A stretch of DNA of 64,000 bases from a virus (IMGVR_UViG_2887663082_000001:1-64000); one strand, 5' to 3'; counted from the first letter of the stretch, positions 21,647 to 53,640 are shown. Translations and numbers: made by a program. The notes: generated from the letters alone by a model not told the origin.

Positions 21647-21740
21647 GTCTACTCCAGATGTAACTTATGGAAAAATGGAAGCAGACAAGTCAGTAGTAAT
21701 CTCACAAGGACGCCGAGAGGTGTCCTTTTTCTTTTGATGG

Positions 21741-21760
21741 ATGCTACAGAAAGTTACATC
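21741..21760 (-). promoter_or_regulatory. Late promoter of the endolysin gene
   Basis: ATGTAACTTT-ctg-TAGCAT on the - strand. Confidence 0.65.
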
Positions 21761-21809
21761 CTGGCGGGGAGAAAAAAACAGGCGATCAAACGCCGCCTGC
21801 CATCAATCA

Positions 21810-22139
21810 TCAAGATACAGCGTCGCTCTGAAATTCTTCACGGCTCTGTTGAAGCTCCGCTTCCATTTCTTCATACCAAGTATCTGGCACGCCAGTGGCT
21901 GTTACAGCTGTCAGTGCGAAAACGCGTAGCATCTCGTAAGGGGCGCATAACGCACCATCGATCGGGTAAATCCCCTGAGCGCTTCCCTCTGCAGTAGCTG
22001 TGATGATCCAAAACAGGTTGATAATGCTTCGAACATTAAAATCCCCGGAAACCTCGAAGTTACAAGGTTCAAGCGCTTCGTCACCTAAGAACGTGACAAC
22101 CCCGCTGCGGCTGCCATCGGAAATCTGAATAGTAATCAT
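21810..22139 (-). CDS. hxr: Hxr-like protein
   Basis: 109 aa; last gene of the dar operon by P1 synteny. Confidence 0.5.
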   Translation of the reverse strand: MITIQISDGSRSGVVTFLGDEALEPCNFEVSGDFNVRSIINLFWIITATAEGSAQGIYPIDGALCAPYEMLRVFALTAVTATGVPDTWYEEMEAELQQSREEFQSDAVS

Positions 22140-23833
22140 CAGTGAGCCTCCTTCAGCACACCGGCCACAAACTCGATCAGACCGTCGTTATTGACCAGAG
22201 ATATAGCCCCTGAATGCGGTTGAGCGAGATACTCAAAGCCTGAGGAAAAAACTTCGGTGAAGGTGGCTGAATTGATCGTCGTGCCCCCGTAAATTTTCCC
22301 GATGTAGGGAGAGGATAAATTATCGGCTATAGCGATCTCTTGGTCACCGTAAACACTGTTTTCATAGAATCCATTCAGTTTAGCTATTGCGTTGTTGTTA
22401 CCCTGGGTGCGTTCGGCAAGGTAGACGCGAGCCATCATCAGATAGTCAGGATTCGAATACTCAAAATGATGCCCCACTTCATGCCAAAGCGTTTTCTTCC
22501 CGCCACGAGGGTTAAGCGAAATGGATTTATCACCTCTGTTGGCAAAAGAGCGGCCACGCAGAATGTTGATGGTTTTCAGTGTGCGAATGCGACCACGTGC
22601 GAGCTTAAAGACCTCTTTGAGATCTCGTTTGAAACTACCTTCAGCACCGCTATACACATCATATTCGTTGATTAATGCGCTGCTGATTTTGATACCGGCG
22701 AACCATTCCTCTGACTGTGCATCATCCACCTCAGAGGCATCCAAGAGCTCTTGACCGAGGAGTTCAACTTGCGGGATTACTTTCTTGATCGACGACTGGA
22801 TCACATCTTTAAGCCATTCGGCACTATGGCTTGGCCCAGTGTTTATGAAATTGGCACAACCATCTTTCGCACCAGGGCTCCCGAAACCGAACTTGCCATT
22901 CAGTAACGCGGTACGAACTGCATCAGCTCGTTCACCGTAGAGGTTACGAACATTAACCCATTCCAGCGATGCCCCGTTTTTGCTATCAAGCATGCTTGCT
23001 ACATCGGCCTTCGCCTCCTCAATTCGATCAGGCAACGACATAGATTGCAACAGTTCAGTCCCTGCAACTTTAGTCCGTTGGTACGCTTCAGGAGCCTCAT
23101 CTGAGGTAAGCGTGAGCTTATTAGGTTCCTCGGTGCTAACGGCCATCATTCTGAAGATATTCATCATGCTGCCGTCCAACAAATCTTCGACGCGGGAATT
23201 AACCGCAGAGATCGCTGGGAACTTAAATTTAACGTTGTCGATCATGATTGGGTACAGAATGTCCCTCAGTATCTGTGCTGCAGCATCTTTTTCGCCGGAA
23301 TCACTGGCATGTTTCCAGCCCAAGACTGCACTTCGAAGGCGGAAGAAATCCCCTGATACGAAAATAAATCGCCATATTTTCTGATTCTCGATCGCCAGTG
23401 GATGCACTTTTGCCGCTTCCCCTATTGCCTTCAGGAAATCGTACTTATCAATGCCGAGCACCTTTTTAGCGGCGGCATACGTTTTACCCAATACGGCGCT
23501 GGCGAGCGTTGTGAACGTGTTAATGTCGCTATCGCTTGCGTTGGTTTTGGTACACAGGTCAGAGAAACGGTTAACGATGAAGCGGAAGTCGCTGCCACTT
23601 ACGGCTTCACGATCCCAAAAGCTGAGGATCGCTTCTGACAGGTCATCGACGTTGCTGCATGTGCCAATGATGGCTTTGGTTTTCTTGTCTGTTTTCGGGG
23701 CTTTAAGCGTGGTTTTTAACATAGATCCAGATCCAGCCGCCCGGATCGTTGGATCTTCCGGGCGGGTGTTGTCGTCAGGCGGCCTGTAAAGCGCTCTCGT
23801 TAATCCAAGTAAGTGCGCCTGCCTTGATATCAT
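22139..23833 (-). CDS. ddrB: DdrB-like protein with HExxH motif (start uncertain, perhaps 23722)
   Basis: Follows ddrA; TLWHEVGHHFE and TEVFS zincin-like motifs. Confidence 0.6.
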   Translation of the reverse strand: MISRQAHLLGLTRALYRPPDDNTRPEDPTIRAAGSGSMLKTTLKAPKTDKKTKAIIGTCSNVDDLSEAILSFWDREAVSGSDFRFIVNRFSDLCTKTNASDSDINTFTTLASAVLGKTYAAAKKVLGIDKYDFLKAIGEAAKVHPLAIENQKIWRFIFVSGDFFRLRSAVLGWKHASDSGEKDAAAQILRDILYPIMIDNVKFKFPAISAVNSRVEDLLDGSMMNIFRMMAVSTEEPNKLTLTSDEAPEAYQRTKVAGTELLQSMSLPDRIEEAKADVASMLDSKNGASLEWVNVRNLYGERADAVRTALLNGKFGFGSPGAKDGCANFINTGPSHSAEWLKDVIQSSIKKVIPQVELLGQELLDASEVDDAQSEEWFAGIKISSALINEYDVYSGAEGSFKRDLKEVFKLARGRIRTLKTINILRGRSFANRGDKSISLNPRGGKKTLWHEVGHHFEYSNPDYLMMARVYLAERTQGNNNAIAKLNGFYENSVYGDQEIAIADNLSSPYIGKIYGGTTINSATFTEVFSSGFEYLAQPHSGAISLVNNDGLIEFVAGVLKEAH

Positions 23834-24119
23834 CGAAAGTCAGATAAACGCTCTGGAAGGGCTCCAGCGCTCTCAGAGTGGCAACAAAGTCCGTAGCGCT
23901 TTGTTTGTTGTATTCACCGGCGAGAAAATCAGTAACGATTTTTGGAACTCCGGGCTCCTCTTCTGGCTTGCCCGAAGTGCCATACCCCAGTTTGACTAAC
24001 ACATCGTCAATCTGATCACTGAGGTCCAGCAAAGCAATGCCGGTTGCCGATTTAGCTTTTCCCAACAACTCATCTAACTGGTCTGAAAGATCTAAACGTT
24101 CGAGAGCACTCAGTTTCAT
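23775..24119 (-). CDS. ddrA: DdrA
   Basis: MKLSALERLDLSDQLDELL...LLDLSDQID..L..LGYG matches recalled P1 DdrA. Confidence 0.75.
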   Translation of the reverse strand: MKLSALERLDLSDQLDELLGKAKSATGIALLDLSDQIDDVLVKLGYGTSGKPEEEPGVPKIVTDFLAGEYNKQSATDFVATLRALEPFQSVYLTFDDIKAGALTWINESALQAA

Positions 24120-25477
24120 GCTGCCGCCCCTCCCTGAGCCACACGAGCCAGCAGATCAGATAGGTGTTGGACAGCCGTGTTAACCAGCTCTTCGTTTTCG
24201 TCGTAAATACCCGCAGCAGTGAGCGCGGCAATAGCTTCACGAACAGCACCGCGAGCATTACGGATCTCCACCAGATCCACGCTATCCAGTTCCGTGATGC
24301 CCTTCAGATAGTCAATGGCCTTTTGCGCTTGTGCATCAGCTTCTGGAGGGGTTTTATCTGGTTCTGGCTCAGTTTCGGTTAAAGCCGGTATCCCTTCACC
24401 GAAATCGATAGCTGTCTTCAGGCGTTCGACGTTGCGCTCCGTCGGATGAGCAGAAAGCTTCTCAGAGAGCTCTGAAAGCTCGTCAGAGCTAATATTCTTT
24501 GTATCTGCCCAATGAGCTACCTGATCTTCTGTATGGCCGGTACGGGCCGCTACTGCGGCAGCTGCAATCATGAACGGCGAAGGTTCATTCTCAACAGGAG
24601 GAACTGGCTTCTGCTTTCTTGCTTCAGCTTCACTTTTCGCTATCTCGATCTGTTTCTGCAGATCCTCGTTCAAATCCTCCTGCTTAGTGGCTTGGGAATT
24701 CAACGTATTGAGCTGTTGGGACAGACTAGTGACGCTTGCTTTGAGCTCATCACCACTATCGACCAGCGCGAGCTGCTGCTCCAGCTTATCGCCCTGCTCC
24801 TGAAGCACTGCGATCTCATTTTTGACAGCGGCCTGGCGCGCCTGCGCCTTCTGAAATTTTGCGGTATTTCGCTCAATCAGGTTGGACAGCGCCATCGTTA
24901 CCTGTTTCAGCGAAATATCACGACCGTTCGCCGGTGACACAACATTGGTTACATCACGCTTATTAAGCAGAAAACGAAATGCTACAAGCGTATCAGTGGC
25001 GGTTATCGTTCCAACGTTCCCGCTTGGGCTGTGGAAAATTAGTGTGATGCTCTGGCCGTCGGATAAAGGGATTTGAGCTGGCATAACAGCAACTCCCTGA
25101 ACCTTACGAGCGCGACCGATATTAGCGCCACCAATCGACTTGGTGCCGTCCTCCACTTCTCCTGCCGTGTCATTACCAGCGGTAATCCCGGTACCGTTAA
25201 GAGACTGATTTAAAGCTCTTACGAATGCTCGCATTGTGGCTGCCAGGCGCGAACGCGTGGACGTTATGGCTTCGAGCATCAAATCTTCTTCCGGAAGCGC
25301 CGGAACATCGTAAAAATAGGTGCTGGTAAATTCTTCGAGCGATAGCGATTCCAGCATAAAGTGTTCGCCTTCATCGGAATGCAAGTCCTGGAATATCTGG
25401 TCCGTGATTTGAATGGCGGGCAAGTCCTGGCGGCTGGAAAGAATAAATCCTGAGTTGCGGTTTATGGTCTTAAGCAT
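24116..25477 (-). CDS. darA: DarA antirestriction/head protein
   Basis: MLESL and MLEAI processing-like motifs; LSDGQSITLIFHSP, FRFLLNKRDVT..VSP; coiled coil; 453 aa. Confidence 0.85.
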   Translation of the reverse strand: MLKTINRNSGFILSSRQDLPAIQITDQIFQDLHSDEGEHFMLESLSLEEFTSTYFYDVPALPEEDLMLEAITSTRSRLAATMRAFVRALNQSLNGTGITAGNDTAGEVEDGTKSIGGANIGRARKVQGVAVMPAQIPLSDGQSITLIFHSPSGNVGTITATDTLVAFRFLLNKRDVTNVVSPANGRDISLKQVTMALSNLIERNTAKFQKAQARQAAVKNEIAVLQEQGDKLEQQLALVDSGDELKASVTSLSQQLNTLNSQATKQEDLNEDLQKQIEIAKSEAEARKQKPVPPVENEPSPFMIAAAAVAARTGHTEDQVAHWADTKNISSDELSELSEKLSAHPTERNVERLKTAIDFGEGIPALTETEPEPDKTPPEADAQAQKAIDYLKGITELDSVDLVEIRNARGAVREAIAALTAAGIYDENEELVNTAVQHLSDLLARVAQGGAAA

Positions 25478-26102
25478 CTGGGGCTCCCAGTTTATTGAGC
25501 TGATCCTGAAGTTGGACGGTAACTGCCTTAGCCGTCGCCAGGCGTGTCTGTGCGTCCTCGACGCGCCGGGAGAGGTCTGATTTTTGCTTCGTAACGGTAT
25601 CTACTGTTTGCTGAAGGCTGTTTACGTTCTTAGTGAGTTCATCCCGGCGGTCTTTTGCTTCTTTGAGCCGCTGAACATTGGACTTTACTGCTGGCCGAGT
25701 GCTGGATGTATCAATGACGCGCTTTGCTTTTTTTGCGAGGCTGTCACTAAATTTTTTCGCGTTCTGCTTAACCGTTGTAGCGAGGCTATCGGCAATTTTA
25801 GAGAACGTATCTGCATGCACAGCAGGAATTGGTTTGCCGTTTAATTTAAAGCCAGAAAAGTCCCCGGAGTCGTTGATCTCGGCCTGCAGCTCTTGCCCGT
25901 CAACGAAACGTAGTGATGCGGTTTTCACACTGAGGCCATTTTTTTTGGATGCTCTGTTACTGGCCGTAACGTTCTCAACGGTAAGACCTGATTTTTTAAG
26001 GGCGTCGATAAATGGCTTCAGGCCTTTCTCAGTTACCTGGTCAAAATTAACCTGAGCATAATTTTTGCCATTCTTGGAACTCAAACTGTTAGAGGCTGGC
26101 AT
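25470..26102 (-). CDS. hdf: Hdf
   Basis: YAQVNFDQVTEKGLK and KSNVQRLKEAK; between lydB and darA. Confidence 0.8.
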   Translation of the reverse strand: MPASNSLSSKNGKNYAQVNFDQVTEKGLKPFIDALKKSGLTVENVTASNRASKKNGLSVKTASLRFVDGQELQAEINDSGDFSGFKLNGKPIPAVHADTFSKIADSLATTVKQNAKKFSDSLAKKAKRVIDTSSTRPAVKSNVQRLKEAKDRRDELTKNVNSLQQTVDTVTKQKSDLSRRVEDAQTRLATAKAVTVQLQDQLNKLGAPDA

Positions 26103-26536
26103 TAGTTCGCACTCCCAAGGTTAATTTCAAACACTTTCTGAGCATCAAGTTGCAGGGGAAATATTCGGTAAAGTGGGTTGTAGAATGAATCACCATGTAG
26201 AATTTTCACATTGATTATCCACTGCCCCGACGGAAGGATAAGACGATCGAGAGGGATATCGAGATACTCGCAGTTCTCTCCCTTAGAGGCGTGTTCAAGA
26301 GTACGCCGGTTGAAGGCGACAACAGTTGTCGGGCATCGCTTATCTCTGAGGGTAAACTCGATAGTCGCACCAACCAGTCGAGATGATTTAACGTTAAAGT
26401 AAACAGGAACGCGCAGATGCCCTTGCTCTACTTTGTGATCGCCGACGCAGAGGTTTTTTACCGTCGCGCGTTGTAATGCCCAGCGGTCGGCAGCCATCGT
26501 GATGCTGGCTCCCGCGACCAAAATCCAAGCAAACAT
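26102..26536 (-). CDS. lydB: LydB-like lysis regulator
   Basis: N-terminal TM, DRW motif and NPLYRIFP; synteny. Confidence 0.75.
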   Translation of the reverse strand: MFAWILVAGASITMAADRWALQRATVKNLCVGDHKVEQGHLRVPVYFNVKSSRLVGATIEFTLRDKRCPTTVVAFNRRTLEHASKGENCEYLDIPLDRLILPSGQWIINVKILHGDSFYNPLYRIFPLQLDAQKVFEINLGSAN

Positions 26537-26862
26537 TATTTGCCTCCCTTGGTGAAGATTTGAGTGATTATTCTTGCAACAGATTCGGTGTTTATCTTTC
26601 TGGCCATGTGGACGACCTCATAACCATTGTTGCTGGAGAGCAGAACGGAAAAGTAGATAATTGGCTCATCGAATTTCTGGTGCCGCCCAACGTAATAGGC
26701 CATTAGCCCTGCTGTTACCGCATATGAGATCGTCGTCAGAAAATCTAAGACTGTTCCCTTAACCTTCCCCTCTCTCAGTTCCATCAGGAAAACTCCTGTC
26801 CCGCTGAGGATGGAAAGGCCGACGGCGATGGCTATCGGCAAGATGTTGTTGCTGATCAGCAC
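26536..26862 (-). CDS. lydA: LydA-like holin
   Basis: 108 aa; two to three TM segments; SNNG motif; GTG start; first gene after a late promoter. Confidence 0.78.
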   Translation of the reverse strand: MLISNNILPIAIAVGLSILSGTGVFLMELREGKVKGTVLDFLTTISYAVTAGLMAYYVGRHQKFDEPIIYFSVLLSSNNGYEVVHMARKINTESVARIITQIFTKGGK

Positions 26863-26895
26863 CTCGGACCTCGTTTCAAGTTTTTACGGGGTCCG

Positions 26896-26914
26896 AGTGT
26901 ATTGAAAGTTACAT
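26896..26914 (-). promoter_or_regulatory. Late promoter of the lyd-dar operon
   Basis: ATGTAACTTT-caa-TACACT. Confidence 0.7.
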
Positions 26915-26950
26915 TTGGAGGGAGGGGGGAATCTTCACTTGGGTGCCTTC

Positions 26951-27595
26951 TTACTCCAGAGCCTTCTCCCAGAAGGTCTTTTCGTTGTGATAATGCTCAT
27001 CCGCCAATTCAGTGAGTTGCTCACTGAATTCTTCCATTCGTGCGGCCGGAAATTTTCTATATAGGGTTGATATGCCGACATCAAAAATGATGGCCACCTG
27101 GTTGCGGGACATACCGTCGAGGATGAGTCTGCCCATTTGAGCCCATTGCGCCTCAGAGTATTTGGGGCGACGCCCTCCAATCCGTCCCTGCTTACGTGCA
27201 ATCGCCAAGCCTGCTCTTGTCCTCTCAACGATCAAATCACGTTCCATTTCAGCAAGGGCTGACATTATGTGGAAAGTAAAACGGCCCATTGATGTGGATG
27301 TATTAATGCCTTCAGTCAGTGACAAAAACTGGATATTGTCTCTCTTGAATCTTTGCAGCAGGTCAGCGAGATTTATTAGCGAGCGCCCTAACCTGTCCAA
27401 TTTCCAGACAACGACGGTATCTCCGTGTCGTATTTTTTTAAGTAGTTTATTTAGGCCAGGCCTTTTCGCCTTAGTTCCGGTCATTTTATCTTCAAAAATT
27501 AGCTCACAATTTGCTCGTTCAATTGCTTCACGTTTTAACTCCGGGTTTTGCTCAATTGTTGACACCCTGACATAGCCAATTCGCATAAATTTCAA
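26951..27595 (-). CDS. cin: Cin-like DNA invertase (serine recombinase)
   Basis: IGYVRVST..QN, VVVWKLDRLGRS and C-terminal HTH; adjacent to a cix site. Confidence 0.93.
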   Translation of the reverse strand: MKFMRIGYVRVSTIEQNPELKREAIERANCELIFEDKMTGTKAKRPGLNKLLKKIRHGDTVVVWKLDRLGRSLINLADLLQRFKRDNIQFLSLTEGINTSTSMGRFTFHIMSALAEMERDLIVERTRAGLAIARKQGRIGGRRPKYSEAQWAQMGRLILDGMSRNQVAIIFDVGISTLYRKFPAARMEEFSEQLTELADEHYHNEKTFWEKALE

Positions 27596-27649
27596 CCTAT
27601 TTTTGGTCTCTGAAAAGTAGGCAAATTGTAACGCGTAGTTTTGATCGAA

Positions 27650-27675
27650 TTATTAAAAATGTTCGTTTAGGAGAA
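27650..27675 (+). other. cix-like crossover site (left)
   Basis: ttattaaaaatg-TT-cgtttaggagaa, inverted relative to 29058-29083. Confidence 0.8.
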
Positions 27676-28056
27676 GCCGCGAAAAGGAATGTCGGTTCTG
27701 GCACTAATCAAATCCCTGATATGTCTTTTTTTGCCTCATCAAGAGGAGGTAATGGATACTTTTCTTTACCTGATGGCACTATCGTACAATATGGAAGTGC
27801 TACAACAGTCAGAAATAATGAAGTTGGAGTCGTAACTTTGCCATTCTCATTCCCTGTAAGGTTTTCTCAGGTTTTGATAACCCACGACGATGCTTCAACT
27901 ACAGGTGCAATTGCTTTTGGATCTGCCACTCCGAAAACTGTTTCAACGTTTCAGGTGGTTGTACAGAAGCTTAATTTTAATACCTCCACAGGTGCAGTCA
28001 CCTTAAGAACCGAAGCTTCACCGTGTTACGTTCGTTATATCGCAATTGGGAGTTAA
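27664..28056 (+). CDS. Silent alternative tail-fibre tip (Sv')
   Basis: The frame from the crossover reads RLGEAAKRNVGSGTNQIPDM, versus RLGEAAKRNVGTGTNQIPDM in the expressed fibre. Confidence 0.85.
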   Translation, partial: RLGEAAKRNVGSGTNQIPDMSFFASSRGGNGYFSLPDGTIVQYGSATTVRNNEVGVVTLPFSFPVRFSQVLITHDDASTTGAIAFGSATPKTVSTFQVVVQKLNFNTSTGAVTLRTEASPCYVRYIAIGS

Positions 28057-28060
28057 TTTC

Positions 28061-28269
28061 ATGCAAAACAAATATAGCCCATCGTTAAATAATTTTTTCT
28101 AGCTTGTTTTATGCGTCGTTATAAACAAGCTGGCACATTACCTAGTGACTCAATAGATATTCCTGATGAAATGTTTAATAAATACGCGGGAGATCCGCCT
28201 GAAGGGATGATGAGAGTGGCGGGTAAAGATGGATTACCCACCTGGACGGAAATTATTTACTCGTCATAA
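28061..28269 (+). pseudogene. Frameshifted, short tail-fibre assembly gene (U')
   Basis: MQNKYSPSLNNFF* then another frame ...YKQAGTLPSDSIDI...PPEGMMRVAGKDGLPTW; one extra T in the T6 run (28093-28098) would restore the frame. Confidence 0.75.
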
Positions 28270-28303
28270 TATTTTCTGGGTTGAACGCATCGCTATAATT
28301 AGC

Positions 28304-28702
28304 TTATATCGATGGCGTTGAGGGCCACTCCGGGTCTGTTGTATCAACGCGCATCAGCAGAACCCGGTATTTTTTCCATTCAGTAAGCGCGGCGGTTTCT
28401 TCTTCCGTCGAAATACCTGCATCAACTGAATCTTGTCGCCATGCTATTTCTGAATCTGCAATAGCGCGTAGTGCTGATCTTTTATCTTCGTTTGCAGCAA
28501 TAATTTCATCTTGAGTTGGGGCTGGTATGTCTATCCATAAAGGAAAACCATCATCACCAGCCACACGGCACTTACCAGGGGGCGGGGTCTCAGAATATTC
28601 GTTAAAAATAGCCTGTTCAATTTCGACAACATCAGACGGCATGCCAGAATCATTGAAGCCAGAAATATAAAATCCATTATTGCTAGGACTATAAAAATAC
28701 AT
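28304..28702 (-). CDS. Tail-fibre assembly chaperone (U/Tfa)
   Basis: YFYSPSNNGFY, PPPGKCRVAGDDGFPLW and WKKYRVLLMRVDT motifs. Confidence 0.9.
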   Translation of the reverse strand: MYFYSPSNNGFYISGFNDSGMPSDVVEIEQAIFNEYSETPPPGKCRVAGDDGFPLWIDIPAPTQDEIIAANEDKRSALRAIADSEIAWRQDSVDAGISTEEETAALTEWKKYRVLLMRVDTTDPEWPSTPSI

Positions 28703-28703
28703 A

Positions 28704-30205: not shown

Positions 30206-30315
30206 TCAGAGCAGCTTCCTCATAGATAGCCCCGGCGTTAGGTTGGGCCAACGCCGGGGGATTTTGATTCCTGCCATGAGTCTACTGAAAGTTACATTTG
30301 GCCTGGGTGCGGTTT

Positions 30316-32852: not shown

Positions 32853-33199
32853 TAATTTGATACTCCTGATGTTATCGTGCCTTCGGGAATGCGGATGGTG
32901 ATAACTCCGAGGTCAAACTCTTGACCGGCGAAAGATACCCCTTTGATTTTGAGTGAGGGAACATCTTCAGAGAGCTTCTGCAATAGCCGACTTTCTATAG
33001 CCACCTGAACGCGATCAGAACCGATGGGATCGTGTTTAAACTCGGAAAGAATATTTCCCCATGCAGGAAGTCCATAGACCGAGCCCACCGGCGTATCTAT
33101 CCACTCTTTTAAAGCTGCTGCCTTTGCTTCGAGCTCGGTGTTGTATGTGCGCAATCCGGTTGACGTGAGCGACATTAAGTAGTCGATTTCGTTATTCAT
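32852..33199 (-). CDS. pmgA: PmgA (gp25-like baseplate protein)
   Basis: EWIDTPVGSVYGLPAWGN; late promoter at 33263-33281. Confidence 0.72.
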   Translation of the reverse strand: MNNEIDYLMSLTSTGLRTYNTELEAKAAALKEWIDTPVGSVYGLPAWGNILSEFKHDPIGSDRVQVAIESRLLQKLSEDVPSLKIKGVSFAGQEFDLGVITIRIPEGTITSGVSN

Positions 33200-33472
33200 T
33201 GTTTACCCTGAACGGTAATGTGAAGCGCCAGTTCTGGCGCGGGCCAGCTAAGTTCTTGAGTGATTGTATGGATAGTTACTTTTGAGCGTGGAAATTAAAT
33301 GAATGGTTGCAGCGGAAACGGTAAAGAAGTTGAGGAAGTTGCATTGCTTGGTTACTTCGCCCTCGATCCGCCAGAGTGGGTGGAAATCACTTCCCTTTCG
33401 TCTGCTGTCGGGCTAAACATTTTTGAATAACTGCATAGGTAAAAAAGGGCCTCAAAGAAGCCCATATGACTA

Positions 33473-40875: not shown

Positions 40876-40960
40876 GGTGTCTCCTGGTGGTGTTTTTCGT
40901 ACCAGAATCTTAAGGAATGTTCTCTTTCCCGTGTTAGATGAAAAAAACGCCTTGTTAAAT

Positions 40961-41125
40961 TATTATTTTCACAAAATCGTAAAATCATAAATTGTTTAAA
41001 TGATAATTTATGATGTTGTTATTGCCATTGAACGCCGCTATCATTGGTGAAAACGGGTTGATTTACATTGTTAATTCGATGGTTTGTGAGATTGCGAATT
41101 TGCGATTTTCACAAAATCGTAAAAG
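40961..41125. repeat. Centromere-like repeats upstream of parA
   Basis: ATTTTCACAAAATCGTAAAA occurs twice, plus ATCATAAATT-type short units. Confidence 0.65.
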
Positions 41126-44015: not shown

Positions 44016-44579
44016 TTACCCCCAGCTTGAGAAAACAGACATCGCTTGCGGTATCGCGCCCCGCGTAGACATCTCTGCTTCAAGGTCGGTTCTACGCTGA
44101 ACTAAAGCGGCTTCATCTGGGATGTTGGATGCGTCAAGCTTACCGGCGATGGACACGCGGCGATCCAGTTCAGAGTTAGGGATAGCGATCAGGATTTCGA
44201 GGTAGTCTTTGATTATGCCAACGGCAACCGGCGGAACGGTCCCTTTGTCGAGGTCCAATTGGGAGAGATGTACGAGATAGTCCATGCGCAGCGGGTACGA
44301 TACTCGCTGGTCAGAACTGATCTCGATGTTGCCACCAAAGATATCGCAGGACACGTAATTGCCAGTGGCATCGGTAACGGCCACCAGCTCAAGGTAATCA
44401 TCAGGGCAGGGGATAGATGAACCTTCTTTAACACGGATGCTTTGAATGCAACCGGCGCGGTCCTGATATTCGGTTAATGCCTTCCTGAGGAGGGCATCAA
44501 GCATGTCTTTCTGGTTCTCAACCAGCAGGGTGAGGAAGCGTTTTTTCACTTCCTCCAGTAGTTCGCGAGGTGTGGCCAT
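44016..44579 (-). CDS. pmgC: PmgC-like head-tail protein
   Basis: TPRELLEEVKKRF...LLRKALTEYQDRAG; late promoter at 44603-44621. Confidence 0.7.
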   Translation of the reverse strand: MATPRELLEEVKKRFLTLLVENQKDMLDALLRKALTEYQDRAGCIQSIRVKEGSSIPCPDDYLELVAVTDATGNYVSCDIFGGNIEISSDQRVSYPLRMDYLVHLSQLDLDKGTVPPVAVGIIKDYLEILIAIPNSELDRRVSIAGKLDASNIPDEAALVQRRTDLEAEMSTRGAIPQAMSVFSSWG

Positions 44580-44637
44580 AGTGCCTCCTGTTTAAAGGCA
44601 CCATGGTATGCAAAGTTACATTTGGGGAGGGATGTAA

Positions 44638-45817: not shown

Positions 45818-46125
45818 TCTTTGTTTCTCCGGTAAAAATCGGTCAGCTTGTCGTACTCAGCGTGGGTGGATATGTGCTTGATGAAGATTTTTTTTGTTAC
45901 GAAATCAGCAAAAAGCATCACTCTAAGATTTCCACCGCCAACATCTACAACCCACCATTTCTCCCTGTACTTCATTCTGTCGAGGCTTGGAAGCCTCTTC
46001 TTCATATCTTCCGGGGAGTTGAAGTTTTCACGCTTCAGTACCCGGTATAAATCTTTAAGCGCCGCCGCTTGGTTAGGAAACTGCATTGAGGCAGTATCGA
46101 ACGGCGCTCTTGATATAACGTGCAT
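45814..46125 (-). CDS. higB: HigB toxin
   Basis: MHVISRAPF...VVDVGGGNLR...HISTHAEYDK. Confidence 0.92.
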   Translation of the reverse strand: MHVISRAPFDTASMQFPNQAAALKDLYRVLKRENFNSPEDMKKRLPSLDRMKYREKWWVVDVGGGNLRVMLFADFVTKKIFIKHISTHAEYDKLTDFYRRNKE

Positions 46126-46140
46126 CCTGTATCCCTTGGA

Positions 46141-46196
46141 GTTTCCTTGTTGGAAACATTATAGGGCAGACGTGAAGAGTTTACAATATGGAAACT
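46141..46196. promoter_or_regulatory. Probable HigA operators
   Basis: GTTTCC-N5-GGAAAC (46141) and GTTTAC-N5-GGAAAC (46180). Confidence 0.65.
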
Positions 46197-46214
46197 GTCG
46201 AATTTGGCAGGAAT

Positions 46215-46238
46215 AAAAAAACCCGCCGAAGCGGGTTT
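46215..46238 (-). terminator. Terminator after bplB
   Basis: aaaaaacccgc-cgaa-gcgggttt. Confidence 0.8.
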
Positions 46239-46271
46239 ATCTGTACATCGTCGATAGCGTTATCGAGGTTA

Positions 46272-46766
46272 TTACTCAATAAAGTTATAGACGATACGCA
46301 GGTTAGGGCGCACCAGGGCGGTCACATCTTCAGTAGAGAGGTCTGTGCCGTCCATGTAGATCTTACAGTCGTACAGATTGGTTTTGAGCGAGTCCGGGGA
46401 TTTGCCCCCAAAGGATTCCGGAGTTGCCTCGATGCGAACATCGAAATAGCTCTTGTTGTTCACCGCATCTTTGATGAACTTCAGCATTGGGCCCTGAATG
46501 GTTTCGACAACCTGCGCAGGCATCTCACCAGAGTTACGAACTGGACCGTGTTGGTTGAACTTCATGCCGTTAGGTCCGAAGTCCTCCACATCTTCACGGG
46601 TACGCTCAGGGAACTGAGCAGTACGGAACAATACAGAAAGATGCTCCTGGCCGATAACGGTGAGTTTAAACTCAGCGCCATTGAGTTTTTCACCCATTGA
46701 GCGGTTGGCAACATATTGCTCCTTCAGGAATGCAACGTTGCCAACGGCATTAGAATGTCCGGGCAT
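46272..46766 (-). CDS. bplB: BplB tail tube protein
   Basis: TREDVEDFGPNGMKFNQHGPVRNSGE matches recalled P1 BplB. Confidence 0.85.
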   Translation of the reverse strand: MPGHSNAVGNVAFLKEQYVANRSMGEKLNGAEFKLTVIGQEHLSVLFRTAQFPERTREDVEDFGPNGMKFNQHGPVRNSGEMPAQVVETIQGPMLKFIKDAVNNKSYFDVRIEATPESFGGKSPDSLKTNLYDCKIYMDGTDLSTEDVTALVRPNLRIVYNFIE

Positions 46767-46781
46767 AAGGTATTTTCCTCA

Positions 46782-47396
46782 TTAGATAAATAATTTTTCG
46801 ATCTCTGAACGGTTCTGGACCGCCATACCAGAGAGTTGAAGGTTCACTACATTGGAGATGAAATAACCGTCTGATGTTTTCGGCGCATCGAGGTTATACG
46901 ACACGTCCTGAATCACGACGTCGGCCAGAATGAAACGCCGACCAATGTTCACGGTGACAGAGTTTGGGCGACGGCCACCAGGCGTTGTGTCATTGAGCTC
47001 CGGGGAGATCATCTGGCATAAACGAGTGATGGCACCGTCAACTTCAACTGCTGCGTTACTGATAGCGAGCAATTCAAGCGGCAGAGTAAGGGCTGGTGGC
47101 TGTGAACCTTGCCACACCATCAGGCTGTTCCAGCGCGATACAGAGGTTGTCGTCGTCACGGACTGCGCCATGTTAGAGAGCGTCTCAATACCAGCGATAG
47201 AACCGGCGTTATCCCCCTCAAACGGGCTTGTCCAGGCTGACGCTATTTGCATAGATGCGCCCTGGCCGATATAGCCGATCACGCAGTATTCAGCCGACGT
47301 AATGTAGGCCTTCAGATAAGGGCTAACACCATCAGCACCGATCGCACCGTAATACTCCATTGATACCTCAAACAGGCCACCATCGCTGGTGGCCAT
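46782..47396 (-). CDS. pmgG: PmgG-like tail protein
   Basis: ADGVSPYLK, WTSPF and MISPEL motifs; synteny. Confidence 0.7.
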   Translation of the reverse strand: MATSDGGLFEVSMEYYGAIGADGVSPYLKAYITSAEYCVIGYIGQGASMQIASAWTSPFEGDNAGSIAGIETLSNMAQSVTTTTSVSRWNSLMVWQGSQPPALTLPLELLAISNAAVEVDGAITRLCQMISPELNDTTPGGRRPNSVTVNIGRRFILADVVIQDVSYNLDAPKTSDGYFISNVVNLQLSGMAVQNRSEIEKLFI

Positions 47397-47401
47397 ATCC
47401 G

Positions 47402-48136
47402 TTAGCCGATACGCTTAGCGCGCAGTTTCATGGATTTTTTACGGTGCAACTTGCCCTGAGCCGAACCGGCTTTACGCTGTGCTTTTTTCAGCGCCATGCG
47501 TTGAGCTGCGGTGCGACGATGCTTTTTGAAAGGCTTGCGGATTAACTTCACTTTGCCGTTGCGCACAACTTTTTTCAGCGCTTCGGTCATGGTGTCGTCA
47601 CCGCTGACAGAGTAGGTGGCCACCAGCTCATCTTTTTCATCGTCGTCGATGTCATTGAGCTGAGATGCAATGCTTGCGCCCATCTCATCATCTGCGTCGT
47701 CGAAGAAAGATGTAACGGCATCATCATCGATGCCAACACTGATCATGAAGTTCGCCATCTCAGCCAGGACGTTGTAGTAGTCGTCCAGTTCATCATCGGT
47801 TGGTTCGTCGGTGTCGCCATCGATGCCCGCGAGGGACTGAGCATACGCGTCCAGGCTGTCGTAAGACGTGTCGTCGCTGCTGGCCCAGTCAAAGACCGCA
47901 TCAGCAGAATCGCCGAGGCTTGCGCTGGCCATCTGTGCGGATACGGCTTCCAGAATCATCTGGTGAGCTTTATCCGGAGTGATTTCGACGTCAGGCTTTT
48001 TACCGTCCTTGTCAGGATCGCCAGGGTCTTTATTACCGCGACTCTCCATCATGAAAGAAGTATGGGTTTTGCCACCCATCGCGATGGTTGCCAGCTCATC
48101 AGTCTGGCTACCGCCGTTTTGAAAGAATTTAGCCAT
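47402..48136 (-). CDS. P1 gp21-like protein (acidic core, basic C-terminus)
   Basis: Start MAKFF at 48136; KKVVRNGKVKLIRK...TAAQRMALKKA resembles prohead core proteins. Confidence 0.65.
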   Translation of the reverse strand: MAKFFQNGGSQTDELATIAMGGKTHTSFMMESRGNKDPGDPDKDGKKPDVEITPDKAHQMILEAVSAQMASASLGDSADAVFDWASSDDTSYDSLDAYAQSLAGIDGDTDEPTDDELDDYYNVLAEMANFMISVGIDDDAVTSFFDDADDEMGASIASQLNDIDDDEKDELVATYSVSGDDTMTEALKKVVRNGKVKLIRKPFKKHRRTAAQRMALKKAQRKAGSAQGKLHRKKSMKLRAKRIG

Positions 48137-48144
48137 AATTTGCC

Positions 48145-49746
48145 TTATCGAATAACAACAGGTTTGCCGAGCAGACGACGAGCCGAGCCGGTAGGGCAGG
48201 CCCACCAGGTGACAGCCCAGTAATCGATCTCAACCTGCTTAACTACGAGGATGAAAGGTTCAGTGCCGTCGGAATCAGGATCACGCGGAGTGACCAAAGC
48301 ACCAGCTGCGTGGAAGCGCTCTAATACTTTCGTCATTTCGCGCGTCAGGCTTTCTTCAGTCACGCCGTCCGGCTGGTGTTTCAGCGTGCGGCCCAGCTGG
48401 AAGAAGAAGCGGCTGATTGCGTCAAAAGTGGAGGACACGTGCTGGAAGCGCAGGTAGTTCTCTTCGCTGTAGGTAGTTAGCGCATCATCAATAATCATCT
48501 GGCCAGAAGAGCTGGTGGCCACTTTGTTGATGCGCGCCGTGTACATTTCGTCGAAATCTGGCGTACCAATACCGTCGATCGGTTCGAGCTGAGCGCGGTT
48601 GATGAGTGCACGAGTTTCGCCCGCCGGTGAGTAGTGCCAGCCACCAACATCGGTGTTAAGAGCAATACCACGAGCTTTCGCCGCGTAGGCAGCACCGGAC
48701 AGACCAAATGCCACGCGGGCCTGCGTCCATTTGTCTTTGCAGGTGAACGGGAAGTGATACATCGAGCAGGAAACGTAATCGACGCCCACCAGCCCGGTAG
48801 ATTCCTGTTCCGTTATCGCCTCTGCATAGGTCAGCGTCGGTTTGAGGTCAAAGTAGCCATCGATACGACGGTCCTGGCAGATATCACCCAACAGGGTATA
48901 GGACGGCGTGCTGTAGCAGCCAAGCCCCAGAACAGCGGTGTAATTCACATTGGCGTTACTGAGGATCTCAATAGCCTTTTTATACTGCTCATCGGAGATA
49001 TTGGACTGATCGCCGTTGGTGCCGCCAACAAACGTGACATCGGTAATGTTGCCAAGGTTTACACCGGCAGCTGCGGTAAGGTCGCAGGTCGCGCCCAGAT
49101 AAGCAGAACGAGATTCAAGCGCCGTAGTAATGAAGCAAGGGCGGCCCATCGCATCGGTCTCTTCGGAATCAAGAGATACAACGGTGCTTTCCAGAACGGT
49201 GACGGTACCGAGTTTGCTGGTTTCCTTCAGCGTCAGGGTAAAGCGATTGGCGTTGAGCTTGTCCGGGGTGAAAGAGATGCTACGGTTAGTCGACGGGTCA
49301 CCATCGATAGGGTAGATAGTCAGGAACTGCTTGTCCTTCAGCTCTACACTCTGCCCATATGCCAGCGCATCGGTCGCAGTTACCGCGTTAACGTCGCCGG
49401 TAGACGCGGATTCTTTGCTGAAGCTGATAGTCGGGAACTTTGCATCTTCCGGAACAACACGCACTACATAACCGTCGGTCTGTTGAACGGCTTCGAAGAC
49501 GTGGCGCATTGGTTCAAAATGACTACCTTCCTGCGGGCGAATTGGGTCGCCGAGGACATCCATATAATTGGATTTGGTGATCTTTAACGCCTTAAACGGT
49601 TTCCCACGTGCGAACACACCTACGCCAGCCCACAGGGACTGATTAAGGTTAGAACCCACGGTCGCTGTTTTGCTTGCATCAATGGCGGCAACCGCAACTG
49701 CGGAAACGTTAGTCAACGTAAAAGGGATACTGAAATTAGAACTCAT
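48145..49746 (-). CDS. Tail sheath protein (gp22)
   Basis: 533 aa; GVFARGKP, GWHYSPAG..R and CPTGSARR motifs. Confidence 0.85.
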   Translation of the reverse strand: MSSNFSIPFTLTNVSAVAVAAIDASKTATVGSNLNQSLWAGVGVFARGKPFKALKITKSNYMDVLGDPIRPQEGSHFEPMRHVFEAVQQTDGYVVRVVPEDAKFPTISFSKESASTGDVNAVTATDALAYGQSVELKDKQFLTIYPIDGDPSTNRSISFTPDKLNANRFTLTLKETSKLGTVTVLESTVVSLDSEETDAMGRPCFITTALESRSAYLGATCDLTAAAGVNLGNITDVTFVGGTNGDQSNISDEQYKKAIEILSNANVNYTAVLGLGCYSTPSYTLLGDICQDRRIDGYFDLKPTLTYAEAITEQESTGLVGVDYVSCSMYHFPFTCKDKWTQARVAFGLSGAAYAAKARGIALNTDVGGWHYSPAGETRALINRAQLEPIDGIGTPDFDEMYTARINKVATSSSGQMIIDDALTTYSEENYLRFQHVSSTFDAISRFFFQLGRTLKHQPDGVTEESLTREMTKVLERFHAAGALVTPRDPDSDGTEPFILVVKQVEIDYWAVTWWACPTGSARRLLGKPVVIR

Positions 49747-49801
49747 TCAGAACTGTCCTGTTTAGCGCCCCAGCGGGGCGCGTTTGGTTGAAATCGTTTG
49801 A

Positions 49802-51529
49802 TTAGTTGCTGGAGGAGCTCTCGATCACGCCGCCGGTGCGGAAGTTCAGGCCGCCAACTTTGAGGTTGGTGAGGGTGAACAGCGTGAAGTAGTCCTGGCC
49901 GTTTCGTGGGTGAATACGGTTAATGGAGGAACCCCACAGAGTGGTGCGGTCCACCAGCGCCGGAGTGGTCGGGTGTTTGAACGGAATAACCGGAACAGCA
50001 TCACCGGTGATGAAGCCTGCTTTGCCAGGGTTTTCATCGCGGCAATAGCACAGGATGTCGTAGGAGTGGAACTCGATGCCGCTATTGGTGAATGCAGTGC
50101 AAACGCCAGAAGGGATCTCGAACACTTTGATGCCGTTGAACAGCGTACCGATGAAGTGAACGTATGGAACCTGAGTGTAGTTCTCTGCTGCGGTGAACAG
50201 GTTCGGCGGCAACATCTTGATGAAACCAGCCGCGTCAGCGCCCGCGAACATACCGACAGAGCCGGTGGTACGGGTACGCTCTGCGATGTCGCGGAATACC
50301 TGCTGCACCTTACCTTTGAACATCATGGTCCAGACATCCAGATTGGTATCCTGCGGGATAGCCACATCGTAGGTATCGGTGTATTTACAGCGGCGGATCA
50401 TGGTGCGCAGACGCAGCATGTCCTGCTCATGAGACAGGTAATCTTTCAGGGTACGGTACTGCAGGGAATCCAGATCGATACCGAATTCGCGCTGCGCATC
50501 GTAGGCTGCCATTACGCTATGTTCTGCGGCCAGAGCATACTGTGATGGGTACACAGTCCATTCACGCATTTCCTGGTTAATAACCGGGATGTATTCAGGA
50601 GCCTGCTCGATGTTGATCTCAACTTCAGCTTCCAGCTCAACGCCAGAGTCCAGCGGCTGCGAGAAGGTGAGGTCGATCTGACCTTTCGCATAGTCAATGA
50701 CACCGGTAAGAACGTTCTGCTGCCCATCGGCATTAGCAAAGTCATAAATGATTTTGCCGGTATTACCGCTGGTGGACGTATCAACATCTGTCGCTTCATT
50801 GTTGATGTAAAGGACCGAGCGGCCTTTACGGATCGGAATTTCTTTACCGTGTTCAAAGTCGGAGGTTTTGAAGCTGAAAGAGGTGGTCGCGCCATCGCCT
50901 TTAGCCGCCAGCACGTAGTTGCGGCGCATTTGAGCGTATTGGCCAACGGACTGCATGTCCAGCTGATCGCCCTGGGTAAAATCGCCGAAGGTGGTACCGG
51001 CTACGTTGATGATTTCGTAGATTTTGGACTTGTCACGCGGTACCGGGATGAAGGTACACGCATCACCAGTTTGCGCACCCAGCGCAACCGGCAGGATCAT
51101 CGCCAGGAAGATCGGCTGACGGATGATACCGTCCTGGCTGGACATCACTTCAGTGTTGATGGATTCCAGCATGAAATCGGTGGTCGATTTTTTGCCGCCA
51201 GCCTGGTTATTTTCCAGAATGAGACAGTTTTCGAGGGTTTGGTGGGCTGCTGCCAGTACTTCCGGACGCGGAGCGCGTTTATGCGTGTTGGAGTAATCCG
51301 CGATTGCAGCACCCCAGGCAGACAGAACCGAACGCTGAACGTCGGGGGAAACGCCTTCGAAGATAGGATCTTGCTTCGCCGCTTCCATCATCGATGCAAC
51401 GCGCAGCTCAGGGTCCTGGATGAAGCCATTCTGATCGAACTGCGCATCGGAGCAGTAGCGGGTCACGAGACGCGCACTGTTCGAAATTTCGGCAATGCGT
51501 TTACGAAACTCTTTGTTGTTGTCGGACAT
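49802..51529 (-). CDS. Major capsid protein (gp23)
   Basis: MLES processing motif; AMILPVALGA and EHSVMAAYDAQREFG; late promoter at 51561-51579. Confidence 0.85.
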   Translation of the reverse strand: MSDNNKEFRKRIAEISNSARLVTRYCSDAQFDQNGFIQDPELRVASMMEAAKQDPIFEGVSPDVQRSVLSAWGAAIADYSNTHKRAPRPEVLAAAHQTLENCLILENNQAGGKKSTTDFMLESINTEVMSSQDGIIRQPIFLAMILPVALGAQTGDACTFIPVPRDKSKIYEIINVAGTTFGDFTQGDQLDMQSVGQYAQMRRNYVLAAKGDGATTSFSFKTSDFEHGKEIPIRKGRSVLYINNEATDVDTSTSGNTGKIIYDFANADGQQNVLTGVIDYAKGQIDLTFSQPLDSGVELEAEVEINIEQAPEYIPVINQEMREWTVYPSQYALAAEHSVMAAYDAQREFGIDLDSLQYRTLKDYLSHEQDMLRLRTMIRRCKYTDTYDVAIPQDTNLDVWTMMFKGKVQQVFRDIAERTRTTGSVGMFAGADAAGFIKMLPPNLFTAAENYTQVPYVHFIGTLFNGIKVFEIPSGVCTAFTNSGIEFHSYDILCYCRDENPGKAGFITGDAVPVIPFKHPTTPALVDRTTLWGSSINRIHPRNGQDYFTLFTLTNLKVGGLNFRTGGVIESSSSN

Positions 51530-51758
51530 AATCAAGCCTTTTTGGTTTTCAGACGGCTTGATTATGCTGAAAGTTACATCTCGATTTATTTTTGATTAGT
51601 ACTTTAGGTAAGAAAAAGGCGCTTGCGCGCCTTTGGGATTTCCATGTACCGATTTGCAAAAGGACTGTCAAGATAAAGGCGTCAAAAAGACGCCTTGAAA
51701 TAACTTTCTAAAAGTAAACGACATGAAAAACTCATGCTTAACTAACATAAATTAGTAT

Positions 51759-52097
51759 TTACTGTTTGTCTATCCCTACGGCTCCATTTATGCGGTTCAC
51801 TGTGATGTTGTGATCGTTAACCACCGCCAGCCCGACACGTGTAGCCTCTATGTACGCGGGATAATCGCCGTAAACTTTTACATCATAAGCGGGCATCGGA
51901 CACATCCAGGCACTAACGCCAGCCGGTGCAGCCTCAACGCGAATACTTGGCGTTGAAGGAGTCAATTGACTCCCGCTGCATGCTGATAACACTATCGGCA
52001 ACAGGAGCAACAGCGCACCCTTTCTCACCCTGTAGAGTTCGGAGCTTGCTCTGCAGCTCGTTACTTTTTTTCTGATATTCTTGAGCGTGTTTTTCAT
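51759..52097 (-). CDS. o-spanin-like lipoprotein (P1 mlp position)
   Basis: Lipobox VLSAC; overlaps the upstream TM coiled-coil gene. Confidence 0.7.
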   Translation of the reverse strand: MKNTLKNIRKKVTSCRASSELYRVRKGALLLLLPIVLSACSGSQLTPSTPSIRVEAAPAGVSAWMCPMPAYDVKVYGDYPAYIEATRVGLAVVNDHNITVNRINGAVGIDKQ

Positions 52098-52383
52098 TGG
52101 TCTGACTCTCTTTGTTTAGCTGCTCTGCTTTTGCCGCATAGAACCCGGATTTTTCTTCTGCTACCCGCTTGGCGATATCCAGCGTGGTGATCTGCTGGTC
52201 TTTACTGCCAATAGTTTTGTTGAGCGTATTGATTGCCGTAGCCTGCGTATCTACCGTCGTAAGCACGCCATCCAGCCAGCACCACCCCAGGTAGCCAGCA
52301 ATGCCAACTATCGTGATAAGCGCCACCAGCGAGATGGTTTTCAGGTTCGGTAGCGATAACCATCCTTTAATCAGATCAAACAT
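51934..52383 (-). CDS. i-spanin-like protein (P1 ppfA position)
   Basis: N-terminal TM, coiled coil and C-terminal Cys (CAVAPV). Confidence 0.72.
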   Translation of the reverse strand: MFDLIKGWLSLPNLKTISLVALITIVGIAGYLGWCWLDGVLTTVDTQATAINTLNKTIGSKDQQITTLDIAKRVAEEKSGFYAAKAEQLNKESQTNEKHAQEYQKKSNELQSKLRTLQGEKGCAVAPVADSVISMQRESIDSFNAKYSR

Positions 52384-53123
52384 TATTCGTCCCCCTTCAG
52401 GGCGCTAAGTACCGCTGCAGGTGTAATGGCGGTAATGGCACTGCCTACCGTGCTGTCATTCACTGACGAGTTAACCAATGCCACTGATATCGCGTTGCTA
52501 TAGGCGGTTTGAGCAGAGTTGCAGCTGGTGACCGCATCTTGATAGATGGTATTCAGTGAGTCACCGGCAGCGGTGACAGCAGTCATTGCAGTTTTGAATC
52601 CGGCTACGGCATCTGCCAGCGCTTTTATCTGCGCGTCTGTGAGTGATACGCCAGCACCGACGGCCAGAGATGTGTTTATGGCGTCCATTGCAGCTTTAAG
52701 GGCTGATGCATCGAGGGTGGCCAGCGCATCTCGCAGCGCCCCAGGATGTGTATCGTCAGTGATTGCTTTTGACACCGGCAACTCGGTTGCTTCCTGCTCG
52801 TTCGCTCGACAGTAGACATCCCAACCGATGGAAAGCTGGATCAATGCTGACGGTGATGTGTAACCACGAAGCAGTTGCGCGTGGTTGTCTGCAGACTTGG
52901 ACAAGTCGGACAGACTGGCAGACCAAGTTGTTATCTGCGTGGTGTTGGCGCTGATCGTCGCCGGGTATTGGACCGTTGAAAGGATAAGCCCTTTCAGCAG
53001 CGTGCTGGTTGCCGCCGAGCTGGTGGCTGCTTCCGTACAGATGTTTACGGCTGGCGGTGTAATCATGCCACCGGCGGATACGAGCTCTTTGTACGCGTTT
53101 AGCTGATTTGTTGTTGAGAGCAT
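52383..53123 (-). CDS. upfB: UpfB-like Ala-rich virion protein
   Basis: 246 aa; QLNAYKEL and IGWDVYC; synteny. Confidence 0.55.
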   Translation of the reverse strand: MLSTTNQLNAYKELVSAGGMITPPAVNICTEAATSSAATSTLLKGLILSTVQYPATISANTTQITTWSASLSDLSKSADNHAQLLRGYTSPSALIQLSIGWDVYCRANEQEATELPVSKAITDDTHPGALRDALATLDASALKAAMDAINTSLAVGAGVSLTDAQIKALADAVAGFKTAMTAVTAAGDSLNTIYQDAVTSCNSAQTAYSNAISVALVNSSVNDSTVGSAITAITPAAVLSALKGDE

Positions 53124-53125
53124 GA

Positions 53126-53410
53126 TTATCCAACCTTAACGAGGGGATCGCCGCTGGTAACGGTCGAGCCGCAAGATACCGGGTCGCCTTCGCACACCAC
53201 GGCTTTCCCGCCGATAGTGAACCAGGGGCGGGTTGATAAGGCGTTACCCGGATGAGAAGAGTTGCCGTCAGAGTGTTCGGGGTAGGCGTTGCCCTCCACC
53301 AGCACGCCAATACCGTTTACCTTTACGAATTCAACGGCCTCAGCTGGCGGCCTGGAGGGGAAACCTCCGTGCCCGGAACAAATTGAGGTTTTTACAGCGA
53401 TGTTCGACAT
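53126..53410 (-). CDS. upfC: PAAR-like spike tip (UpfC)
   Basis: CSGHGGFPSRP...GDPVSCGS; 94 aa from the ATG at 53410. Confidence 0.85.
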   Translation of the reverse strand: MSNIAVKTSICSGHGGFPSRPPAEAVEFVKVNGIGVLVEGNAYPEHSDGNSSHPGNALSTRPWFTIGGKAVVCEGDPVSCGSTVTSGDPLVKVG

Positions 53411-53640
53411 AAAAAAGCCCACAGTTGTTGAGACTGTGGGCAGTGTATGGATAGTTACATTTAAAGGGGATGCTTCGAAGTAACAATTGAGGTTAGTAGG
53501 TAAAAAATGGGTGTGTATCAATATAAAGTGCTTGTGTTATGCACTAAAACACTAGATGTAGTAGAGAAAGTCAGATGAAAAATTAAACATGTGTTTTGGT
53601 TAATACATGATATTATTACATTATTAAGAGAGGGGGGATT

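Follow-up and report, generated by a model that had tools for sequence, protein, structure and literature searches.

Bacteriophage P1 is a classic model phage as well as a tool for cloning and transduction, and among enterobacteria P1-like phage-plasmids are widespread and carry cargo genes. The insertion sequences IS10 and IS50 possess a “protection from outside activation” (fold-back inhibition), by which an extra segment of incoming transcripts pairs with the ribosome-binding site (RBS) and blocks translation. This work concerns the late promoters of a P1-like phage-plasmid, a distant relative of P1, and the RNA hairpins that overlap several of them, in the first 64 kb of its 96.8 kb IMG/VR virus record (IMGVR_UViG_2887663082_000001:1-64000). 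We will refer to this whole 64,000-nt stretch as “the window”. A design of this kind has been described in phage T4, where the genes e, soc, 49 and I-TevI hold the Shine-Dalgarno (SD) sequence and/or the start codon in a helix that takes its 5' strand from the late-promoter region (PMC3014915). Longer transcripts of these genes fold, and their translation is poor (lower by about 100-fold for gene e), and late transcripts, which are devoid of the 5' strand, are translated well (PMC3014915).

The mechanism discussed below is not new: it is the T4 design, predicted here in P1-like phage-plasmids. As in T4, at the capsid, pmgC, holin and PAAR genes the longer RNA is predicted to pair the SD sequence or start codon and, given the predicted start sites, the 5' strand contains or adjoins the late promoter. 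The two systems differ in the transcription machinery, since T4 uses the gp55 promoter TATAAATA, whereas here the host sigma-70 polymerase would act together with an Lpa-bound -22 box. They also differ in lifestyle and extent, as the device would belong to a temperate phage-plasmid and is predicted at the heads of several operons (capsid, tail assembly, holin, terminase). IS10 and IS50 protect one transposase gene per element, whereas several operons, tied to a developmental promoter class, are involved here. P1 itself offers another comparison: its annotated promoters LPsit, LP23 and LPdar (NC_005856) are homologous promoters that precede pmgC, the capsid gene and the holin gene, respectively, with the same layout of box, spacer and -10 hexamer. 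They likewise overlap with a hairpin, with arm sequences unrelated to those of the present element, and the annotation lists the promoters and no hairpins. No paper describing such hairpins for P1 was found, the original P1 genome and late-promoter papers lying outside the comparison.

Our preferred interpretation, to which we assign a probability of roughly 0.6, is that Lpa-type late promoters are placed in the 5' arm of an RBS-locking RNA helix that silences RNA read in from upstream. Judging from the sequences compared, the arrangement is real and recurrent, and probably selected, at about half of the late promoters.

Lpa-type late promoters

The capsid protein encoded in the window is 56% identical to P1 gp23, and PHROG matches were obtained for PmgC, holin, endolysin, Sit, tail sheath, tail tube and a PAAR protein. 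At the DNA level, the closest relatives are two Citrobacter freundii plasmids, with 77.5% identity, followed by a Pantoea plasmid with 72%; a megablast search of 8 kb of the genome against a phage collection returned zero matches, the DNA being too distant from known phages. The pattern AWGTAACTWT-N3-YANNNT matches the window exactly at seven sites, each of them on the minus strand, whereas shuffles predict 0.02 matches; this bears out a previous sequence-only reading that had placed such a motif before minus-strand late operons. Each match is situated upstream of an operon head (PAAR gene, capsid gene, pmgC, a pmgA-like gene starting at 33199, gene R, holin gene and endolysin gene), and outside the window two further sites precede pacA and a small gene at 95202. 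The seven window sites fit a layout composed of a 9-bp -22 box, a 4-nt spacer and a -10 hexamer, with no -35 element, in agreement with the 11 late promoters annotated in P1; the box reads ATGTAACTT here, and AAGTGACTT and similar in P1. Furthermore, tblastn placed a homologue of P1 Lpa, with 41% identity over 105 residues, at 74909-75223, beyond the window, and its gene lies upstream of pacA, an arrangement shared with P1. By their sequence, the window sites are late promoters of the P1 Lpa type, and their dependence on Lpa is predicted. A scan of IMG/VR with the motif pattern, which has 14 specified bases, gave only unrelated single matches, and no Rfam family was found at or above its gathering score in 21000-54000. 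An 8-bp stem precedes the small gene at 95202 (95202-95285, outside the window).

Promoter arms paired with ribosome-binding sites

Leaders were folded as a long RNA, starting 60 nt upstream, and as a short RNA, starting at the predicted late start site, which was set 7 nt beyond the -10 hexamer. Duplex formation between the promoter segment (-16 to +3) and the translation initiation region was scored against 1000 shuffles, and the energy needed to open the region of the SD sequence and start codon was controlled by swapping in the upstream part from another late promoter. The control set consisted of 1250 leaders from 11 genomes; a strict automatic detector, run genome-wide, found only 19 late-promoter leaders. 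For comparison, 13 further P1-like genomes or contigs were assembled, and capsid and pmgC leaders were gathered from IMG/VR, GTDB genomes and metagenomes.

Four leaders of the window share one geometry, in which the 5' arm begins inside or just after the -10 hexamer and ends between -1 and +4 of the predicted start site. Because the arm spans the -10 region to about +1 to +4, a transcript begun at that promoter cannot include it. In the predicted folds of these leaders (capsid, pmgC, holin and PAAR genes), the SD sequence and the start codon are buried in the long RNA and open in the short one, a feature that we will call a “lock” (Table 1). The arm coordinates given by the sequence-only reading are all correct. 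At the capsid gene, whose promoter is the homologue of the annotated P1 LP23, the 5' arm comprises the whole -10 hexamer plus 6 nt, and the 3' arm a weak SD sequence, TTG and the ATG (51529-51527). The 12-bp pairing is perfect, as had been claimed, and reaches 13 bp in a helix that is present in both the minimum-energy and the centroid folds (long RNA z = -3.9); no structure is predicted for the short RNA, which starts at 51554. The pmgC promoter is the homologue of P1 LPsit, and its 3' arm holds the SD sequence GGAGG and the ATG (44579-44577); the proposed arms do pair, over 11 bp with one G-U and over 13 bp in the fold (long RNA z = -3.6), and the short RNA is open. The 12 positions proposed for the holin gene also pair at their site, although not perfectly, with one C-A mismatch; the fold contains an interrupted 11-bp helix, in which bases 1-3 of the -10 hexamer additionally pair with the GTG (26862-26860); the long RNA has a z score of -2.8, and the short RNA is open. 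At the PAAR gene (upfC-like), the hairpin directly precedes the ATG at 53410, and the late start site lies inside its 5' arm (fold z = -3.8; short RNA without the hairpin).

The pairing at these four leaders is strong, with duplex z scores of -7.1 (capsid), -5.3 (PAAR), -4.6 (pmgC) and -3.3 (holin), and the long RNA would require additional opening energies of 14.5 (capsid), 13.2 (holin), 11.2 (pmgC) and 10.6 kcal/mol (PAAR) with respect to the short one. In each of them the native long RNA lies above every swapped-upstream control, and moving the start site by 2-3 nt has little effect on the opening energies. Their long RNAs fold better than shuffles (z = -2.8 to -3.9), and their short RNAs are no more structured than shuffles. 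The remaining leaders are weak or negative, both in the duplex score (gene R -1.6, p = 0.07; sit -1.0; endolysin -0.6; 33199 gene +0.9) and in the energy difference (pmgA-like gene +2.8, gene R +1.2 and endolysin 0.0 kcal/mol). Folding the leaders with and without the 5' arm, the check suggested together with the original proposal, is thus favorable at the capsid, pmgC, holin and PAAR genes and unfavorable at the endolysin gene and gene R. Likewise, the idea that late transcripts begin inside the 5' arm and escape folding holds in the predicted folds of those four leaders, and not for endolysin, sit or R.

A number of “six or seven” promoters had been put forward, and the feature was found at four of the seven in the window. 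In the whole 96.8 kb genome it is present at five of nine late promoters, the fifth being that of pacA (leader 73083-73131, outside the window; duplex z = -3.9), so that the qualifier “genome-wide” does not survive: about half of the late promoters are concerned, endolysin and sit fail, and gene R is weak. A by-product of chance or composition, without selected function, might generate pairings of this sort, for instance when the CAT of a -10 hexamer meets an ATG. The leaders of R, sit and endolysin, which are no better than shuffles, and the overlap of the arms with elements conserved for other reasons would fit such an origin. It is nonetheless improbable in view of duplex z scores down to -7 and of the controls that keep composition: native pairings exceed those of promoters cross-paired with the initiation regions of other genes both in this genome (p = 0.0006) and in the set of 11 annotated P1 late promoters, which was defined by others in 2004 (p = 0.006). 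In addition, a z score below -2.5 is reached by 8 of the 19 automatically detected late-promoter leaders and by 5.0% of the 1250 controls (Fisher p = 2.7e-6), and double and G-U substitutions preserve the pairing in relatives. At the same threshold, the curated sets give 5/9 promoters here and 2/11 in P1, where LPdar has a z score of -2.4.

The hairpins could instead act mainly by terminating or pausing incoming RNA, or by marking it for cleavage, with the hiding of the RBS as a side effect. The PAAR hairpin speaks for this possibility, since it has the features of a canonical intrinsic terminator (a stem of 9 pairs, including 6 G-C, with a loop of 7 nt and six T); because six U come after its helix, a terminator that encloses a promoter is the better description. 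In comparison with ordinary intrinsic terminators, its 5' arm holds the nested promoter, it should stop incoming RNA only, and it immediately precedes the start codon. Ordinary terminators located upstream also insulate the late promoters of the endolysin, capsid and 33199 genes. However, the capsid, pmgC and holin helices run into coding sequence and have no U run, the 3' arms match the SD sequence and start codon exactly in every lineage, whatever the arm sequence, and helices of 7-14 bp are short for RNase III. Consequently, termination as the general role seems unlikely to us. Apart from these considerations, a sigma-70-like promoter with 10/12 matches is present at 53649-53620 on the minus strand, co-directional with and upstream of the PAAR late promoter; it could be a source of RNA stopped by the nested terminator.

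The hairpin might also act on the late mRNA itself, as a stabilizer of the 5' end or a throttle on translation, which would need a start site further upstream or pairing of a residual arm. Two observations point in this direction: the RBS-sequestering hairpin of the endolysin leader persists in the late RNA, and the relatives L126, L315 and the D6 group hide the capsid SD sequence in a hairpin within the leader. On the other hand, the -10 hexamer is part of the 5' arm at the capsid gene, at pmgC and at P1 LPsit, and polymerase cannot start upstream of its -10 hexamer; RNAs begun 3 nt earlier still show little extra structure. We give this role little credence.

Table 1. Late promoters, locks and proposed stems in the window
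Feature	Positions	Strand	Remarks
Endolysin late promoter	21741..21759	-	Motif match; no promoter-embedded lock
Supposed endolysin 3' arm	21654..21666	-	Inverted copy of late-promoter box
Holin (lydA-like) late promoter	26896..26914	-	-10 TACACT 26901-26896; predicted start ~26889
Holin lock	26860..26901	-	26897-26886 pairs with 26874-26863
Gene R late promoter	30279..30297	-	Outer stem 30280-30219 weak
pmgA-like gene (start 33199) late promoter	33263..33281	-	No lock, z = +0.9
Proposed sit stem, 7 bp	40882..40907	-	No late-promoter box
pmgC late promoter	44603..44621	-	-10 TACCAT 44608-44603; predicted start ~44596
pmgC lock	44576..44606	-	5' arm 44606-44594, 3' arm 44588-44576
Capsid late promoter	51561..51579	-	-22-type box and -10 CATAAT (51566-51561); predicted start ~51554
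Capsid lock	51526..51567	-	5' arm 51567-51555, 3' arm 51538-51526
PAAR-gene (upfC-like) late promoter	53442..53460	-	-10 TACACT 53447-53442; predicted start ~53435
PAAR terminator-like hairpin	53411..53441	-	53441-53433 pairs with 53425-53417; six T 53416-53411

Related phage-plasmids and gene context

The promoter-RBS pairing recurs among relatives with different sequences. Upstream of pmgC, the segment from -10 to +1 pairs with the RBS in 7 of 10 promoter-bearing lineages (permutation p <= 5e-5), with at least four unrelated sets of arm sequences (this lineage, L358, P1 type and JK004 type). The P1-type pmgC helix is paired in 88/88 cells, compared with 27-43% when the partners are slid; it includes one double change from G-C to A-U, in which the third -10 base changes from G to A alongside C to U in its partner, and its loop is variable. 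In a Citrobacter relative, the G-U of the pmgC helix becomes A-U via a substitution inside the -10 hexamer, and in the Citrobacter relatives the loop-proximal pair of the PAAR stem is swapped from T-A to A-T. For the capsid lock, 10 of 14 lineages fall below p = 0.05 (permutation p <= 5e-5). Within the present lineage, 94% of the cells of the capsid helix are paired, against 18-61% when slid, and one pair runs through A-U, G-U and G-C. Covariation across related phage-plasmids, which the sequence-only reading had named as a check, was found in part: compensatory or G-U changes occur at pmgC and the capsid gene, together with the swap at the PAAR gene, and the shuffle control for the capsid alignment was not significant.

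The same alignments bear on the view that the inverted repeats are DNA-level palindromes, that is, protein-binding sites or cruciforms modulating the late promoter. In P1, the -22 box is annotated as a protein-bound 9-bp inverted repeat, and the endolysin inverted repeat of the window is built from two promoter boxes. Nevertheless, the arms differ among promoters of a single genome, which leaves no common site, the loops vary from 5 to 33 nt, and the G-U pairs of the capsid helix (9/54 cells) would be mismatches in DNA; these pairs fit a sense-strand RNA, and neither DNA nor an antisense RNA. We regard a DNA palindrome as very improbable.

P1 and the JK004-type relatives carry different 7-bp capsid helices, shifted by one column. 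Four compensatory changes that had been considered between them were rejected, as the alignment shows this shift, and the helix is counted as re-made rather than as classical covariation. A further late-promoter leader of JK004 (MZ188976 near 3727, minus strand) has a promoter-RBS pairing with z = -7.5. In P1 itself, LPsit has an 11-bp core helix, with 14 pairs across one bulge, which includes the -10 hexamer (+13.5 kcal/mol, z = -4.7); the pairing is CCUCCU to AGGAGG at LPdar and CUCUUCC to GGAAGAG at LP23. The capsid leaders of the D6-like group (L117-L125, L329-L347), L126 and L315 represent a different solution at the same gene, with the SD sequence in a short local hairpin wholly inside the leader, one G-U variant and no recognizable overlap with a late promoter. 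Besides, in L133 (IMGVR_UViG_2883489344_000002, 17980-18010) the pmgC reading frame stays open only when five consecutive C are counted as six; the cause is a sequencing error or else a genuine frameshift at codon 3.

Gene order may offer a rationale for the distribution of the locks. Those without an upstream terminator follow co-directional genes that are not late: the DNA invertase gene before the holin gene, ending 37 nt upstream of the holin promoter box, and an unknown gene plus a regulator-like gene, both co-directional, before pmgC. In P1, the sim genes precede LPsit-pmgC, and parA-parB-parS precede LP23-gene 23. No lock is found in P1 where the upstream DNA is divergent (LPlyz, LPpro, LP26, LPpmgL), nor after a late gene, as in P1 LPs or at gene R here, which follows the late tail-tube gene and has no terminator either. 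The endolysin and 33199-gene promoters have an upstream terminator and no lock. The numbers are too small for a test of this association and its fit is imperfect, as the capsid lock comes after a late spanin-like operon and then a terminator. The invertase encoded at 26951-27595 on the minus strand is Cin-like and lies on the same strand as the holin gene, whereas P1 cin is on the opposite strand.

The RBS-lock mechanism rests on three inferences, namely where the late transcripts start, that transcripts do read through from upstream, and that the pairing alters translation. Its 5' arm would consist of the -10 hexamer together with the downstream bases as far as about +1 to +4, and its 3' arm of the SD sequence and start codon of the first late gene. 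RNA read in from upstream would carry both arms and fold, and its RBS, costing 10.6-14.5 kcal/mol more to open, would go untranslated; at the PAAR gene, the helix and six U would terminate the incoming transcription. The RNA of the late promoter, starting inside or after the 5' arm, would form no helix and be open to ribosomes. The capsid, tail-assembly, holin and terminase (outside the window) genes would in this way be insulated from transcription not driven by Lpa, leaking for example from the invertase gene before the holin gene or from the non-structural genes before pmgC. Prophage or early transcription is the probable source of the RNA that is to be silenced, and gene context would suggest that it arises in the plasmid state.

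Several results weigh against this interpretation. Only about half of the late promoters bear a lock, and the start sites are assumed. Since the arms also serve as -10 hexamer and SD sequence, conservation alone is weak evidence. The capsid lock, the strongest one, sits after a late operon and a terminator, where the need for it seems least, and the swapped-promoter controls of pacA require opening energies nearly as high as the native leader. Among relatives, the holin lock is not retained in Pantoea-type plasmids or JK004, the pmgC lock is absent in Pantoea and G005, and the capsid lock is absent in G004, G005, G006 and L315, with the capsid shuffle control mentioned above adding to these points. 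Finally, P1 LP23 gains only 0.4 kcal/mol in the thermodynamic model, because an alternative pairing competes.

If the RBS lock operates as proposed, the holin, capsid, tail and terminase genes would stay untranslated despite leak from plasmid-maintenance, immunity, invertase and cargo genes, which would help to explain the tolerance of frequent cargo insertion beside late operons, as well as the position of a lethal holin gene directly downstream of a constitutively needed gene. The -10 hexamer of the promoter would be under a second, RNA-level constraint, with implications for annotation and engineering, as the gene behind a late promoter would be freed, or locked for good, if that promoter were shifted or swapped. 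A broader version is a general insulation grammar, in which each Lpa-type promoter exposed to non-late transcription is nested in the arm of an RBS lock or of a terminator, with its own RNA escaping and incoming RNA being silenced; we put its chances at about even. Were it true, the -10 hexamer would carry two codes, promoter and anti-RBS strand, co-evolving with the RBS, and it would become clear why different lineages have re-made the helix again and again from unrelated sequences.

Leaders without a convincing lock

The lock proposed for the endolysin gene was rejected, as its long and short RNAs both require 10.9 kcal/mol for opening. Its arms, of 14 and 13 nt, would pair with one base bulged, and the fold does not use this long-range pairing: an internal segment of the leader (21650-21686, minus strand) pairs with the SD region and holds the RBS in both RNAs. 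Given that energy, even the late endolysin mRNA is predicted to be translationally restrained. The inverted repeat results from two promoter boxes facing each other, since the plus strand at 21658-21676 reads as the box ATGTAACTT, N4 and AAAAAT, oriented toward the endolysin promoter. Four relatives (Citrobacter, Pantoea, G002) keep this inverted box, which in the Pantoea plasmid matches the late-promoter motif perfectly. Downstream of it, the plus strand carries an intrinsic terminator at 21706-21727 with a T run, conserved in Citrobacter, Pantoea and G002. The region 21658-21737 on the plus strand may give rise to a cis-antisense RNA some 50 nt long, which would be complementary to the beginning of the endolysin late leader. 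A minus-strand terminator at 21801-21777 insulates the endolysin promoter from upstream.

Gene R, which had been listed as a weaker case, is at most marginal (z = -1.6, p = 0.07, only +1.2 kcal/mol), and its leader has a strong inner 12-bp hairpin in both RNA forms. A terminator-like hairpin with a T run lies at about 33462-33440, upstream of the promoter of the pmgA-like gene. The other weaker case, sit, does not hold, as no late-promoter box is present here and the duplex z score is -1.0; the Citrobacter sit homologue does have such a box. Upstream of sit, in a region that lacks a late-promoter box, one 20-mer is repeated on the minus strand, at 41103-41122 and 40969-40988, about 134 bp apart, and the two copies could be a pair of repressor operators.

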